64,000 bases of DNA. It comes from an uncultured bacterium. Lineage in GTDB: Bacteria > Chlamydiota > Chlamydiia > Chlamydiales > SM23-39. The stretch is from assembly GCA_963716985.1 (NCBI GenBank), contig OY970323.1:640001-704000 (forward strand), given 5' to 3'. The translations under genes were made by a program, and so were the position numbers. The notes beneath the pieces were generated by a model. It was given only the letters and a program-made list of their open reading frames with translations, was not told the DNA's origin and searched no databases. This document shows, piece after piece, positions 10,635 to 25,224 of this stretch; position 1 is the stretch's first letter, and each line of letters opens with the position of its first letter.

Positions 10635-10683
10635 ATAAAAGAAGGTATAACTTATCACCTTATAGGATTTCCTGCAAGGGCTT

Positions 10684-10868
10684 ACTTCCTCGAAGATCGT
10701 TTCGTGGAAGAAAAACATTCTCGATGGCCAAATTTTTGACCGAGGAAGCATTCTGCCGTCGGTCTTTAGCACTCTCAACGTAGCCATCTTATGGACTTTA
10801 AGCTAGGCCAACCAGGAGTTTGTTCGTCTCCTTTCCAGCCCCTCTCACTTTAGGGAGGAGTGATTGAC
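10684..10868 (-). ncRNA. HEARO / omega-RNA-like structured element (IscB-type IS200/IS605 RNA scaffold), no cognate ORF
   Basis: Minus strand GTCAATCACTCCTCCCTAAAGTGAGAGGGGCT...TGGTTGGCCTAGCTTAAAG...GGCTACGTT...AAGACCGACGGCAGAATGCTTCCTCGG...CGAGGAAG. GTCAATCA pairs with TGGTTGGC; CTTCCTCG is complementary to downstream CGAGGAAG (pseudoknot-like). Similarity judged from memory of the family. Confidence 0.6.
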
Positions 10869-10874
10869 GGATAA

Positions 10875-11708
10875 TCAAGAGGGCTCTGATTGCAATCTTT
10901 GGCGATCCTTTGATTCCAAACAATGGGTGCTTAAAGATTTTTTGAATGTTTCCTTTTGGGCGTCGAAGTAAGAAAAATCGGTCCATTCTCGAATGTGAAT
11001 GGGGACGATGGTGATAAATCCTTCTTTCAGAAGCTCAATGTCGCTTTCTCTATCTTCTTTGGCAAGAAAGTTCCAATCATTCTTTAAGGAATAATAAGAA
11101 TGACCTTCGCGGTGGCGGAAGCTCATCGGCGTTCCTTCCCAATAACTTTGTCCTTGCCGGGCCAGACGCACGCCTTGAATCTTTGGAGTGGTTGGGAATG
11201 TGACATTAAAAAAGGTCCCGGGAGAGGGGGGATTGTTCATGATCAAAGATATGATGGGAAAAATGAGATGTTCAAAAGGTTCATAGAGAGTTACTTGGAA
11301 ATTTTCCGCGGAGAAAGCAATACCCAGTATTCCCCGAAGGGCGCCTTCGATCACACAGCCGACGGTTCCGCTATAAAAAATGCACCTTCCCGCGTTTGAG
11401 CCGCGATTGATGCCCGATAGAATCAGATCGGGCCTCCGGTCTTTGAGGAGGACGTTGAGTCCCAGTTTGACACAGTCCCCGGGCGTTCCATTGACGCACC
11501 AAGCGTCAGGATGCGATTCTTCCCAAGGGACATTTTTTAGGCGCAGGGCGGCCTGAGGAGAGGTGGCAAGACCCATTCCCGATTTTTCGGAATCCGGGGC
11601 AACGATCATGGTCTTTGCATGTTTTGCGACAGCGCGCCAAAGCGATCGAATGCCGGGTGCGTGAATGCCGTCATCGTTGGTGAGAAGAATCAATGGTTTT
11701 TTTGTCAT
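10875..11708 (-). CDS. surE: 5'/3'-nucleotidase SurE
   Basis: ILLTNDDGIHAPGI, GTPGDCVKLG, SGINRGSN and YSGTVG motifs. Confidence 0.96.
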   Translation of the reverse strand: MTKKPLILLTNDDGIHAPGIRSLWRAVAKHAKTMIVAPDSEKSGMGLATSPQAALRLKNVPWEESHPDAWCVNGTPGDCVKLGLNVLLKDRRPDLILSGINRGSNAGRCIFYSGTVGCVIEGALRGILGIAFSAENFQVTLYEPFEHLIFPIISLIMNNPPSPGTFFNVTFPTTPKIQGVRLARQGQSYWEGTPMSFRHREGHSYYSLKNDWNFLAKEDRESDIELLKEGFITIVPIHIREWTDFSYFDAQKETFKKSLSTHCLESKDRQRLQSEPS

Positions 11709-14417: not shown

Positions 14418-14500
14418 GGGGGCGTCGCATAGCGGCAATTGCAAGGGACTGTAAATCCCTCGGTCTATGACCTCCGTTGGTTCGAGTCCAACCGCCCCCA
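14418..14500 (+). tRNA. tRNA-Tyr(GTA); integration target
   Basis: GGGGGCG...CGCCCCC acceptor stem, anticodon loop CTGTAAA, long variable arm GGTCTATGACC. Confidence 0.97.
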
Positions 14501-14628
14501 AAAAACCACCCCGCAAATGCGGGGTTTTTTGTGGACGGAGGAAGCCAATAATTTGGCTTCCGTTTGGGACTCGAAGGGAGGTACTCCGTCGACAAACAAG
14601 CGGTAGGCCCGGAGTCCAACCGCTTCCA
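14501..14628 (+). repeat. tRNA-trailer structured repeat, copy 1 (terminator hairpin, second hairpin, anti-T-loop segment, tRNA 3'-end relic)
   Basis: CCCCGC-AAAT-GCGGGG-TTTTTT; GGAAGCCAA-TAAT-TTGGCTTCC; GGGACTCGAA; ends GAGTCCAACCGCTTCCA. Confidence 0.75.
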
Positions 14629-14867
14629 ATTTTTATAGACAAAATTCTCTCAAAAAACCAAGCCCTAAAAAAACCCGAAAAGTGCGCTTCAAAATCCCGA
14701 ATGGGACACTGGTGGGACAGCAGTTATTACGAGTTTTCAAAGATAAAGGCGTTAAATGAATCGCACTTTTACTCAAAGGGTGCACATACTCATCTTATTC
14801 GGCTTGATAAATGGCTGCTGTGTCGATATATAAATAAATTGATCATTAGAAAGAATGTAGGGAATAA

Positions 14868-16586
14868 ATGACTACTCATGGTGTTCCAAGTCCAAATGAA
14901 CCATCTTTTTTGATAATTAATTCGTCTTCTCAAATAGATTTGTCCAGAGCACGTGTTGCCTACGAGGGCGCGATTAGCAACCCACGAGAGCGACATGCTG
15001 AAGTGGGTATTCTGTTACCCAATGGGAAGGTTCAATATGCCAGACTTGGCAAGAATGAAGAATATGGGCCGCATCGTGTAGGGTCGGTTACAAAGACATT
15101 CACGACATTTTTAGCCTTAAAACTTGCTAAAGATGGGGTATTGCCTCAAGGTTTGAAAACGCGTTGCGGCGACCTTCTTTCAAAGGAAATTCTTGCAAAA
15201 ATATTTGAAGATCCTGCGGCTGCGGAAAATATGACATTAGAGCAGCTTCTTTCCCATACAGCGGGTCTTGAATTAGATGATCATAGTCGCCAACAAGAAA
15301 TTCGTTCTTCTACAATGCATGAGCGTTTTCTACAGGAGGGCCAAGAAGGCCGTAAATTTAAACATACAAGTCAACCTGGAGATGGAATTGGTTCTTATAG
15401 CAATGCTGGGGTTGCGGTTGCGGGTTGGATGTTAGAAGTTGCATATAATAAATATAACGGAAAAGAGACGCCGGTCATTCCCTTTTCTCAGATCATGAAA
15501 AGAGAATTATTTGAAGGAGTTTTTGGATTGTCTGGGCCTTTTATTGGGCCTGCACCTTCTGAGGATATCATCCAGACTCCTGCCGGTGGTATGACATCAT
15601 CCATCGGAGATCTTATGAAAGTTGCCGCCCGTCTTCAGCAAGGAGAAGCTTCTCTTGAGCATTTCTTTGGAAGCGGTTGGCAAAGGGCCATGTTAACGCC
15701 CCGTGATCTTCTACAACATTATGGATTAGGATGCCATGCCAATGCTTCTTCTATTGAACATGCGGGTCTGACTCAAGAAAAATTTGGGGATGAGGCGCGG
15801 GACACTACTGCTTTGGTCGTTTTTCCTCTAGGTCCTGAAAAAGCTGGTTTAGCCGCGATGTGCGATTCAAGTGCACTTGGCCCCGCGCTACAAGAACAGA
15901 GATTTCTCAACGCTTTGAAAAAAAGTGCTGGTATTTCACATATAGAAGAGCCAGAACCTATTTACGATTTGGATTTCTTTTGCCCAGAATCACCGAACGC
16001 TATTCTCTTCCACGGAGATGTTTATCTGATTACGGATGTAGATCCTTTCGCTCTAGTTCCTCCAGAGAGGATTATCTGTACTCGCAATGGGATGAAACAT
16101 GTGCTTGTCCGAGATGCTTCTATCGATAAAAAGGATATCCGTGGGTATCGAGATGAACATGGAAAACCATGGGTTGTCATTTCAAGGGAAGATGGGCGCA
16201 AAGCAATTTATAGCGATTATTGTTTGCTCACCGAAGTGGTAAAGACAGGGGATTTTGCCTTAGCACAACCGGATTTGGTTAGTGTTCAATCATTACAAGG
16301 AGAGTATCGGGATACTGAGACGTTAGGAGAACATCCAATTTATTTCTTTACTGAAAAAAATGGGCACCTTTACATGCGAGAGCGTAATGATAAAATTAGT
16401 TATCCTTGTCTATACATTCCGGACGATGTGGGTGGAGGAGGAGCATGGGTAGTTAGCAATCCAGATGGTCGAAAGATCAAATTTCGATTTCCTAAAAATC
16501 CAGATAGCGACTTCCTTGTAATCACAGATATTCTTATGGGTGTTCCTCAGTTCCCGCCGAAAAGTAAAAGAACTCGTCGCGTATAA
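14868..16586 (+). CDS. Serine hydrolase, beta-lactamase-related (class C-like) family, with C-terminal extension
   Basis: SxxK (GSVTKTF), LLSHTAGL and YSN (SYSNAG) motifs. Confidence 0.8.
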   Translation: MTTHGVPSPNEPSFLIINSSSQIDLSRARVAYEGAISNPRERHAEVGILLPNGKVQYARLGKNEEYGPHRVGSVTKTFTTFLALKLAKDGVLPQGLKTRCGDLLSKEILAKIFEDPAAAENMTLEQLLSHTAGLELDDHSRQQEIRSSTMHERFLQEGQEGRKFKHTSQPGDGIGSYSNAGVAVAGWMLEVAYNKYNGKETPVIPFSQIMKRELFEGVFGLSGPFIGPAPSEDIIQTPAGGMTSSIGDLMKVAARLQQGEASLEHFFGSGWQRAMLTPRDLLQHYGLGCHANASSIEHAGLTQEKFGDEARDTTALVVFPLGPEKAGLAAMCDSSALGPALQEQRFLNALKKSAGISHIEEPEPIYDLDFFCPESPNAILFHGDVYLITDVDPFALVPPERIICTRNGMKHVLVRDASIDKKDIRGYRDEHGKPWVVISREDGRKAIYSDYCLLTEVVKTGDFALAQPDLVSVQSLQGEYRDTETLGEHPIYFFTEKNGHLYMRERNDKISYPCLYIPDDVGGGGAWVVSNPDGRKIKFRFPKNPDSDFLVITDILMGVPQFPPKSKRTRRV

Positions 16587-16650
16587 TAGCCTCGAGAGTC
16601 CCTGAGTTGGTGCAATGTTAATGCTAGCAAAACTTTTGAAAAGTCTACAA

Positions 16651-17022
16651 TTATCTCGCAAGGGCAGCAATTGATGCACGGGATGGCGAATCACCAATCA
16701 TCGTGCTTCCATGTTCTTGATGAGAAGAAGGAACAATGGAAATATAGACATCCTGCCCTAAATCGTTTAGAAATCTCAATAAACGTTCCAGAGAAAAACT
16801 TTTTAGGTATCCTCTCAATAGCAAAGATACTTTAGGTTGATCGATTTTTAAGATTTTGGCTACTTTAGATTGAGTCAATTTCTTTTTCTTAATGATTTTA
16901 CTGATTTCCCAAGCAAGTTGTGATTTAGCAAGAGCTTTTTCTGGATTTGGAACACCTAAATCAGCAAAAACATTCCCAGAGCTTTCTTCATATTCAATAT
17001 CTTTATATTTTTTTTTCTTCAT
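16651..17022 (-). CDS. XRE-family HTH antitoxin (HigA-like)
   Basis: SSGNVFADLG...LTQSKVAKILKIDQPKVSLLLRG...FSLERL; downstream of a RelE-like gene. Confidence 0.88.
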   Translation of the reverse strand: MKKKKYKDIEYEESSGNVFADLGVPNPEKALAKSQLAWEISKIIKKKKLTQSKVAKILKIDQPKVSLLLRGYLKSFSLERLLRFLNDLGQDVYISIVPSSHQEHGSTMIGDSPSRASIAALAR

Positions 17023-17039
17023 AACTTCTCCTCATGAGA

Positions 17040-17390
17040 TTACTTCAAAAGAGCTCTCGCTTCTTTTAGGCGTTGTTTAATGATTTCTATTTCATGTCTT
17101 GGAGTAGCAATACCACATTTTGATTTTTTCTGGAAAACATGTAGTACAACCACAATTTCTTTAAATTCAACTGTATAAACAGCTCTGTATGTTCCGCTAG
17201 AATCATTTTCACGAATTTCCCAGATCTTAGCGCTGTCAAATCCTCTGAGTAATTTTGCCGATGGAGGAACTTCGCCTTTCTGCACGCCTAATAGTGCGTG
17301 GCCAACTGCTCTATGCACTCTGTCTGGAAATTCTTTTAAGTCAAAGCGACTTTGTCTTATCCATATGATGCGCTTCATATCGATATCCAA
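17040..17390 (-). CDS. RelE/ParE-family toxin (HigB / Gp49-like)
   Basis: WEIRENDSSGTYRAVY...VLHVFQKKS...TP; toxin-first order with an XRE antitoxin. Confidence 0.88.
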   Translation of the reverse strand: MDIDMKRIIWIRQSRFDLKEFPDRVHRAVGHALLGVQKGEVPPSAKLLRGFDSAKIWEIRENDSSGTYRAVYTVEFKEIVVVLHVFQKKSKCGIATPRHEIEIIKQRLKEARALLK

Positions 17391-17413
17391 AACTATCTCA
17401 ATTCACAATCAAT

Positions 17414-17431
17414 TATGCCTATATGGGCATA
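17414..17431. promoter_or_regulatory. Palindromic operator upstream of the HigBA-like pair
   Basis: TATGCCTATATGGGCATA is a near-perfect inverted repeat just upstream of the toxin start. Confidence 0.6.
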
Positions 17432-17467
17432 TTATTGCGAAAACAATTTTTGGACCATATGAATTTT

Positions 17468-17660
17468 TGGGACACTGGTGGGACAGCAATCCCTTGAAAC
17501 TACCAAAAACACCCAACAAGAAACAATAATTATTTTACCACAAGACGCTTGTTTTTAGATTGATAGGTATTGATTAGGGTTGATAGAGATTGGATTCCGA
17601 CTGACTGTAAATCCCTCGGTCTATGACCTCCGTTGGTTCGAGTCCAACCGCCCCCAAAAA
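17468..17660 (+). repeat. attR-like site type A (arm motif, ~115-bp arm, tRNA-Tyr 3' half)
   Basis: tRNA identity starts at the anticodon loop; the ~135 nt upstream aligns with 31616-31750. Confidence 0.85.
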
Positions 17661-22969: not shown

Positions 22970-23621
22970 TCTTTGTGCCTGGCATGAATAAGACCTAATC
23001 GGTGAAAGTCCGATCGTAACCCAGAAAGGAGGGAATACGTAGACGAAGAGGCAAGGGTGTCCAAAGAAACCTTTACGAGCTGCTGAGAAACCAGACAAAA
23101 CAGAATCGAAAAAGGCCAATGCGGAATCTGAAAGAAGCCTAATCAAATTTGCCACCTAAACGAAAGTGAACCTTCGTAAGGCAGGAGAAGAGGGTGAGAT
23201 AGCTGACAGTATCAAAACCCAAAATCCTTTACGTATCCCTCTCAAGTAGTGAAGGTGGGTGGGCAAAGAAAGGGATTATTCTTACCCAGGGAGAATCCGT
23301 TGGGAAACCGGAGACATGTAACTACGACATAGATCTCCTAAGCACTACAGCGATGTGGATGTTACGGACCAAAGGATTTCGGATTCGGTCATAGTAGTCG
23401 TAAAACTGTGAGCCTAAGAGGGTGTGGTGACACACCTGAGGATAAAACTCATAGAAAGAGACGCGAGTCGAGGCGAAGGACCGAACATGTTAATGTGCAA
23501 ACTCTAACATCTGAAGCTATTGTTCTGAGATTTGAAGAAACCACCTCAATCCAAAAGAACATCGTAATGTTCCCGGAGGAAAGAGGAATCGACGAAAGAA
23601 CAATACAAAAGGAGAAGCGAA

Positions 23622-25136
23622 ATGAACAAGAGCAAGCAACTTGAATTTCAATTTCAAACAGATCTCTTCGAGCAGATCTGCGCACTTGAAACTCTCATGG
23701 AAGCTTTTAAATCCGTAAAACGGAATAAAGGGGCCCCTGGGATAGATGGAATTACCATCGAAAAGTACGAAGAAAATCTCGAAGAGAACCTGAAACAGCT
23801 CAAGGCAGAAGTTTTGAGTTGGATATATAAACCAACACCCGTAAAACGAGTGGAAATACCAAAACCAGGAGGAAAAGGGATCAGATTGCTCGGAATTCCT
23901 ATCGTAAAAGATAGAGTTCTCCACATGGCAATAAAGATGGTTTTAGAGCCCATCATAGATCCCACATTCTCAGAAAACAGTTTTGGATTTCGTCCTGGAA
24001 GGAACCAACAACAAGCGGTTCAACAAGCTCAGAAAATCGTGCTATCAGGAAAAGAGTATGTAGCGGACATAGATCTTTCGAAATTCTTCGATAGGATCAA
24101 CCACGACAGGCTCATCTACAGACTGAAAGGACACGTAAAAGACCCAAGAATTTTAAAGCTAATCGGAATGATCTTGCGCGGAGGAGTCATGATAGATGGG
24201 GTTAAAACTCCATCAGAAGAAGGATCTGTACAAGGCAGTCCATTAAGCCCGCTCTTGAGTAACGTTGTCTTGGATGAATTAGATAAAGAACTGGAAAAGC
24301 GCAACCTGGAGTTCTGCCGTTTCGCTGATGATTGCAACATATTTGCAAAATCACAGAGAGCAGCAGAGAGAATCATGCAATCGATAAAGAAATTTATCGA
24401 AAAGAAACTCAAACTCAAGGTCAATGAAGAAAAGAGCAAAACCAGAAAATCGAAAGAAGTAAAATTTCTAGGCATGACGATCATCGAAGGAACAATAACC
24501 ATCGCCAAAGCCGCTTATGATAAGGCAATGGAGAAGGTGAGAAGTATGATTCCTAGAGGATCCCACCTACCCATTGAGAAAGCCATGAAAGAAGTAAACA
24601 CATGGTATCAGGGATGGGCATCTTACTTCAAGATGACCCAATACCCTTCTCAACTGAGGGGGATAGAGGCTCATATCAGGAGAAGATTTAGAGCCCGAAT
24701 CATTTATCCTAAAAACGGCAGTTGAACCGCTCTGCATGACCTGAAAATTGTAAATTTCTCTCTCAGAAATAAATTCTATCTTGAACTTTCACGCCCACCC
24801 AATAGGTGAGTGGATAAATTTGAGCAATAACATTGATTTTTAGAGGAGAATCGCGAAAGTTTTGATTGTGCGGAGCGGTTCAACTGCCGTTTTTAGGTTT
24901 ATCAGCAAAAGAAGAAAAGAAATCTTCTTTCGTTGCTGCTGAAAAGAGGAATAGAGAAGAAAAGGGCAGGTAAAACGGTATACTCCAACCGAGGCACTTG
25001 GAATCTGTCTCATACAGCAGTCCTAGATAAAGCTTTTTCGGTAAGATGGTTTATAGAACAAGCAGGACAAATAATAATTTCCAACGTAACAATGAGACAT
25101 TGGTTCGAGATTGAGAAATGGGTAAAATTAACATGA
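23622..25136 (+). pseudogene. ltrA: Group II intron reverse transcriptase/maturase, interrupted by a MITE
   Basis: NKGAPGIDG, IPKPGGKGIRLLGIP, GFRPGR, DLSKFFDRINH, QGSPLSPLLSN and RFADD motifs. Removing the MITE and one TTTAT copy restores ...RARIIYQQKKKRNL...WVKLT* (~439 aa, no endonuclease domain). Confidence 0.92.
24708..24897. mobile_element. 190-bp MITE with 5-bp TSD
   Basis: TIRs CCTAAAAACGGCAGTTGAACCGCTC and GAGCGGTTCAACTGCCGTTTTTAGG; TSD TTTAT at 24703-24707 and 24898-24902. Confidence 0.92.
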
Positions 25137-25224
25137 AGAGCCGTGTACGGACCCGTACGCATGGTTCTGTGAGAGGACGGAGCCCAAAGAGGGCTCCTCC
25201 TACTCGGCCCTCAGGGCAATCGCA

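Follow-up and report, generated by a model that had tools for sequence, protein, structure and literature searches.

ISC transposons (IS200/IS605) such as ISC1-1_MA, ISC2-1_HM and ISC2-1_MS are characterized by an N|ATGA target and a 5'-GT terminus (Kapitonov, Makarova and Koonin, 2016; PMC4810608). A Y1 transposase sets such elements 5' of ATGA with the omega-RNA end first, and the upstream host DNA is the guide that enables IscB to cut the vacated site (PMC4810608; 10.1101/2023.03.14.532601). Insertion in this position and orientation thereby turns upstream host DNA into a guide. The structure of OgeuIscB shows an omega RNA whose nexus and central stems form a three-way junction; its terminal hairpins bind PLMP, a domain of the protein, and its pseudoknot is indispensable (Kato et al., 2022; PMC9640706). 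In addition, Altae-Tran et al. (2021) described standalone omega RNAs, which have no adjacent nuclease gene, as summarized in a commentary (PMC11610941). A literature search on IscB elements of chlamydia-like bacteria found no publication among the sources it covered.

The copy described here lies on the minus strand of a 64,000-nt window, the window being the whole stretch of DNA that was analysed. Standalone omega RNAs of the kind noted above are said to act in trans, and the first-pass annotation had read the copy as a compact scaffold of about 185 nt, standalone or domesticated. The window copy is a descendant of the omega/HEARO family that is neither an intact scaffold nor a complete element; very probably, it is a decayed, lineage-specific ISC (IS200/IS605) remnant that has no far end and no RNA core and can neither excise nor guide. 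The features of the locus are as follows.

11708-10875, minus strand: surE (PF01975, E 7e-52), upstream of the element and on the same strand
10869..10888, minus strand: 5' flank and would-be guide, consisting of the last surE codons, the stop and 6 nt, directly 5' of GTCAA
10739..10868, minus strand: 5' half of an IscB omega/HEARO RNA, which is an ISC transposon end, decayed (from nhmmer, the alignment to L080 and invariant columns); its parts are the guide-adaptor stem, the subterminal hairpin, a small hairpin, a shortened 5' arm of the central stem, and the pseudoknot hairpin as far as its 5' arm and loop
10748-10741, minus strand: CTTCCTCG, the pseudoknot loop, in the 5' half
10679..10741, minus strand: 63 nt of uncertain origin, probably derived from the omega RNA 3' half by deletion and rearrangement (from alignment against shuffles)
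10733-10726, minus strand: ATTTGGCC, within the 3' 63 nt
10706-10698, minus strand: CACGAAACG, within the 3' 63 nt
10692-10685, minus strand: CGAGGAAG, within the 3' 63 nt
10649..10678, minus strand: host promoter-like box TTGCAG-17-TAAGTT of the tRNA-Val/tRNA-Asp pair, outside the element
10635-10561, minus strand: tRNA-Val(TAC) (ARAGORN, Rfam RF00005), downstream of the element
10546-10472, minus strand: tRNA-Asp(GTC) (ARAGORN, Rfam RF00005), downstream of the element

Like ISC transposons, the copy has a 5'-GT(CA) terminus and a subterminal hairpin, its family members in the genome end before ATGA (22/23), and Y1 is encoded elsewhere in the genome; unlike the ISC transposons portrayed in PMC4810608, it lacks iscB, a far end and ATGA. 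It resembles HEARO RNA (RF02033) and IscB omega RNA in the sequence and motif order of its 5' half, in the adaptor stem and in the pseudoknot loop, whereas it falls far short of the HEARO cut-off and its nexus and central stems and terminal hairpins are broken or missing. Similar to the PATE-like gene-less IS200/IS605 elements of Meers et al. (10.1101/2023.03.14.532601), it is an omega-RNA sequence with no adjacent nuclease gene and with the nuclease elsewhere in the genome; those elements have both transposon ends and a whole scaffold, whereas the window copy has one end and half a scaffold.

The surE-tRNA locus

The element starts at 10868, 6 nt past the surE stop, and its end abuts the -35 box of the tRNA pair, giving a surE-tRNA spacer of 239 nt in the window versus 35 nt in congener G001. 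The motifs named in the first-pass annotation were recovered at their places on the minus strand, namely GTCAATCAC at 10868, CTACGTT, AAGACCGACGGCAGAATGCTTCCTCG containing CTTCCTCG, and CGAGGAAG, and TGGTTGGC does close the first stem. The surE 3' end likewise occupies the proposed guide position, immediately 5' of GTCAA. The promoter-like motif assigned to the tRNA pair is present as well, with TTGCAG at 10677-10672 and, after 17 nt, TAAGTT at 10654-10649 (minus strand), and its counterpart in congener G001 (TTGAAT-17-TAAGCT) lies at equal distance to the tRNA; in a consensus promoter scan, the box was too weak to register. With a loose pattern and no shuffle control, a CTTG..AAAT-like box was found 43-54 nt upstream of tRNA-Val in 15/24 relatives' loci, and in 5 of the 24 it stood at an identical 44 nt. 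Judged by this recurrence, the box is therefore ancestral host sequence.

Contigs of four public DNA runs, one of which may be the source sample, contain parts of the stretch with 0-1 differing letters. Their cover is patchy and spans both junctions, and within it neither assembly joints nor an empty-site allele was found. Among the public runs listed as containing the stretch, none is an RNA run, which has no bearing on its expression.

No second copy of 12 nt or more of the would-be guide exists in the genome. The genome also contains no copy of at least 9 nt of it followed by ATG, nor any TAM-flanked target that differs from it at fewer than 3 of 14 nt. One site, at about C1:1573478, has 3 mismatches in 14 nt and is followed by ATGA; it was taken as chance, with no formal control.

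Other features of the window were also recorded. SurE is 277 aa long, and its alignment to most relatives stops near residue 250-265, so that the C-terminal ~15 residues beside the insertion (window 10875-10930, minus strand) may be a recent extension. At 14418-17657 (plus strand), two ORFs lie between a pair of tRNA-Tyr(GTA) genes separated by 3.1 kb, one of 572 aa whose sequence shows an SxxK-like motif (by eye) and one of 123 aa that is HTH-like; the region may be a small tRNA-Tyr-associated island. Group II intron domains occur within 23115-25208 (plus strand), matching RF02001 at 23115-23280 and RF00029 at 25136-25208.

Homology of the 5' half

The descent from IscB omega/HEARO RNA proposed in the first pass is borne out over the 5' half. 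An nhmmer profile of 13 intact subfamily members matched the window copy over positions 1-129 of 261 with an E value of 7.9e-22, and clear homology ends at 10739. In alignment with the intact relative L080, 107/130 columns are identical up to the pseudoknot loop; L080 and L086 are the closest of the loci retrieved by pattern scans (2 genome, 11 metagenome). The nearest copy in the same genome, at C1:389379, shares 76.6% over 137 columns (E 7e-18). Furthermore, omega RNAs homologous to the window copy occur linked to iscB, with full iscB ORFs at three loci (L077, L084 and L085). The 5'-GTCAA terminus with its subterminal hairpin is present at 10868, the hairpin being altered, with 6 pairs possible.

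Covariance models gave a divided answer to the suggested Infernal search. With Rfam RF02033 (HEARO), the window copy reached 12.9 bits (E 3.9) and missed the gathering score of 83, so that Rfam at this threshold reported no HEARO match across the window; a subfamily model built without the window copy, by contrast, returned 37.7 bits and an E value of 8.7e-12. Together with the identity to C1:389379, the latter value places the likeness to omega/HEARO RNA beyond chance. The underlying alignment comprises 13 intact members with a mean column identity of 80% and a consensus of 74 pairs, 31 of them changed on both sides; the genome's two intact members, both included in the model, score 300 and 249 bits.

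The element family in the same genome

The genome (2.07 Mb, one contig) holds 13 HEARO matches with unrelated 5' flanks, 9 of them over the Rfam cut-off and the window copy with the lowest score. Two copies precede full-length 442-aa IscB genes (C1:1818858 and 166410) with RRXRR and HNH domains, and Y1 transposases are represented by two complete matches and a split one beside TnpB. The description of an orphan with no IscB is thus true of the window but not of the genome, in which both iscB and further copies with other 5' flanks, as the first-pass annotation had suggested looking for, were found. A second hairpin marks the element's far end; it is present at 23 sites, 22 of which are followed by ATGA, and complete gene-less elements (RNA plus far end) are located at C1:389379, 35378 and 1669794. 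Decay varies among the copies: the one at C1:1049421 ends at model position 132, versus 129 in the window copy. Of the IscB type linked to the window copy's own RNA subfamily, the genome retains just what looks like a fragment with an internal deletion (C1:1505962), and the two full-length IscB share 47% identity with an IscB linked to this RNA type in the one comparison made, which suggests that they belong to another subfamily.

Several members of the family show features of their own. Far-end sites (e.g., C1:1669664, 1003654, 389022 and 35764) lie on ATGA motifs of which 18 of 22 open a frame of at least 100 aa; among 1500 sampled genomic ATGA sites, 266 are open for 100 aa, and 69 are open for 100 aa with the first ATG near an upstream stop. 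The element family occupies host start codons. The nearest intact sibling (C1:389022-389379, minus strand) sits on the start codon of an apparent type III secretion apparatus cluster (by eye). A complete gene-less element at C1:1919224-1919569 (minus strand) has its ATGA directly before an apparent tRNA gene (by eye) and looks like a second tRNA-adjacent insertion. Both complete Y1 frames (C1:757416 and 1970077) directly follow a 457-aa reverse-transcriptase-like frame, the two copies having the same translations, perhaps representing a group II intron inside an IS200 element, or the reverse.

What the window copy has lost

Among 64 columns invariant in 12 intact members (one wrongly oriented alignment row was dropped, and the alignment is uncertain around positions 64-71), 8 are changed in the window copy, 6 by substitution and 2 by deletion; intact members left out in turn (n=12) show 0-5 such changes, with a median of 0. 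The 50 nt preceding the break carry zero substitutions relative to L080, so change is uneven along the copy.

The helices of L080 are complete (adaptor 8/8, hairpin 2b 6/6, nexus 3/3, central 8/8, P5 9/9, pseudoknot 6/6); the nexus, central, pseudoknot and terminal-hairpin names are those of OgeuIscB, and their correspondence to stems of the window subfamily is presumed. In the window copy, the adaptor stem is retained (8/8 pairs, 2 of them G-U), 2/6 pairs of hairpin 2b are broken, the nexus stem has a changed 5' arm and no partner, and the 5' arm of the central stem is shortened by a 3-nt deletion, with no 3' arm at fewer than 2 mismatches downstream. Both 3' terminal hairpins are absent, and the last positions of the covariance model land on the host promoter with non-standard pairs. 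No ORF remains, none of the genome's 23 far-end matches falls between the element and the tRNA, and no ATGA occurs within 10868-10640. The GGAG and CTCC motifs of the proposed inner hairpin do exist, but the helix of the family is GGCTTG/CAAGC, and it is this helix, hairpin 2b, that is partly broken here.

The fold of the 199-nt minus strand is no better than shuffles (z -0.71), and whole intact RNAs range from -2.4 to -5.6. For the first 190 nt, the window copy has a z of -1.3 and the 13 intact members -1.27 to -4.03, 12 of them lower, so that the predicted fold of this portion does not sharply set the window copy apart. With homology stopping at 10739 and fold scores of this order, the complete scaffold of about 185 nt is not upheld; nor is its compact standalone or domesticated status, given the missing core stems and protein-binding hairpins, a genome full of the family, and the lack of conservation in every relative searched.

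The 3' 63 nt and the pseudoknot-like complement

The pieces of the 3' 63 nt keep the order of a normal 3' half, with ATTTGGCC in place of GTTCTGCC, an exact CACGAAACG, and CGAGGAAG in place of CGAGGGGAG. Aligned to the 3' half of L080, they gave a P of 0.015 versus shuffles, and to that of L081 0.04; with the genome's own two members P was 0.44 and 0.30, and it was 0.15 when the best-aligning of all 13 references was used. With moderate confidence, this segment may be regarded as what deletion and rearrangement have left of the omega RNA 3' half. Two further derivations were considered. The 3' part might descend from a far end fused to the 5' half at a shared GCTTCCTC, but no ATGA follows; and CCCTTGCAGG might be the last omega hairpin, but it also matches the host -35 box of relatives.

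The perfect complementarity of CTTCCTCG to the downstream CGAGGAAG was correctly noted in the first pass: it is an exact 8-mer, placed where the pseudoknot partner of the family would sit, and the subfamily covariance model aligns CGAGGAAG to that partner. Its probability is 0.0036 in shuffles and 0.001 by genome frequency, rising to 0.07 when pairing may involve any 8-mer in the 5' half. The family's own pseudoknot pairing is weaker, with 6 bp including 2 G-U. In the window copy, the pseudoknot hairpin could form 7/8 pairs and a P5-like stem 10/11. In an ensemble of nested pairs only, the hairpin that would display the loop has a probability of 0.0, a local hairpin competing with it, and CTTCCTCG and CTTCCACG compete for CGAGGAAG with helix probabilities of 0.51 and 0.42-0.46. 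This complement is the one result that stands against a plain relic, and it can be an inheritance from the family's pseudoknot pairing.

Distribution among relatives

surE was located in 29/41 genomes, and tRNA-Val follows it in 23/28 relatives' loci, 35 to 1368 nt away. The subfamily covariance model found the element in the surE spacer of 0/28 relatives' loci; the sole other match among the 29 surE loci is weak (10.9 bits) and lies upstream of surE in another genome (L037). Congener G001, the one congener genome compared, has 67% SurE identity; its alignment to the window covers the promoter and the tRNAs and leaves out the element, and its genome yields no HEARO match. The proposed comparison of spacers therefore shows absence of the element from the spacer in 28/28 relatives' loci; with the closest relative just 67% identical in SurE, no true empty site was seen. 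Orthologous-site conservation with covariation was not found in the relatives searched, which include one congener genome. HEARO matches occur in 13/61 family genomes, the window's genome counted; one family relative (G045) has 23, many under the cut-off, and presents another decay series.

Searches for the shortened form returned only the window itself. The exact 26-nt junction pattern had 0 matches in viral contigs, a pattern scan of the genome collection gave 2 loci, both normal, and the metagenome core-motif pattern gave 11 loci, all with a normal 3' half and 0/11 with the window's 3' part. In BLAST searches of 401 phylum genomes (13 matched, 2 candidates scored each) and 103 family genomes (12 matched), only the window itself extended beyond query position 130.

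Origin of the copy and alternative explanations

For the remnant, we infer the following order of events. An ISC element, with or without iscB, would have entered the spacer that separates surE from the tRNA-Val promoter, at a time after the split from congener G001. One or more later deletions would have removed most of the RNA 3' half and, along with any ORF, both the far end and ATGA, and point changes would have built up afterwards. Loss of the far end would prevent excision, so that no empty site would arise and the guide would be under no selection. The remnant may ride passively on surE read-through, and its RNA should not assemble with IscB; its function as a guide RNA has most likely been lost.

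A functional compact omega RNA would instead have had its central stem region deleted and its pseudoknot re-formed (CTTCCTCG/CGAGGAAG), would be cut from surE read-through, and would load one of the genome's IscB proteins in trans, the 3' end of surE serving as its guide. The perfect 8-bp complement in the pseudoknot's place, aligned to the partner by the covariance model, the intact adaptor stem and the two full-length IscB of the genome are consistent with this. Furthermore, engineered scaffolds down to 166 nt work (PMC13180657), and Meers et al. (10.1101/2023.03.14.532601) discuss gene-less elements whose omega RNAs would be used in trans. However, in PMC13180657, the engineered cuts fell in the adaptor hairpin and 3' tail, and small cuts of the nexus hairpin reduced activity, whereas the window copy has broken or lost the three-way-junction stems and the PLMP-binding terminal hairpins (roles: PMC9640706). 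The other subfamily of the genome's IscB, indicated by one comparison, the lack of a TAM-flanked genome target matching the guide with fewer than 3 mismatches over 14 nt, and the lack of a second example in genome, metagenome and viral-contig searches also speak against it, making such an RNA very unlikely.

Exaptation in cis is unlikely too, though a little less remote: the stretch would be a terminator-like or processing structure of the surE operon, or an insulator or switch before the tRNA promoter, with CTTCCTCG and CTTCCACG competing for CGAGGAAG in two folds of similar weight. Its position from 6 nt past the surE stop to the -35 box, the two competing helices and the unchanged parts in contigs of four DNA runs fit such a role. 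Against it, no terminator-like site lies inside the stretch, the overall fold is no better than shuffles, congener G001 does without the element, the promoter box appears ancestral, and sequence identity between samples of a single species is no proof of selection. Chance resemblance or an assembly artefact is hardly credible; an Rfam score far under the cut-off would suit chance, but the subfamily models reach E 8.7e-12 (covariance) and 7.9e-22 (profile), and both junctions are covered without joints by contigs of four DNA runs.

Implications

There is a small chance that the copy, having lost its core, re-formed a stronger pseudoknot-type pairing and is now either a minimal natural omega RNA for IscB in trans or a two-state RNA element between surE and the tRNA promoter. 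The former would provide a natural scaffold with no central and nexus stems, which could help to make IscB editors smaller, and the latter would exemplify the conversion of a guide RNA to a regulatory role in the host. As the decayed ISC remnant that it very probably is, the copy would record a single stage in how an IscB element family abundant in this genome decays, and would matter little.
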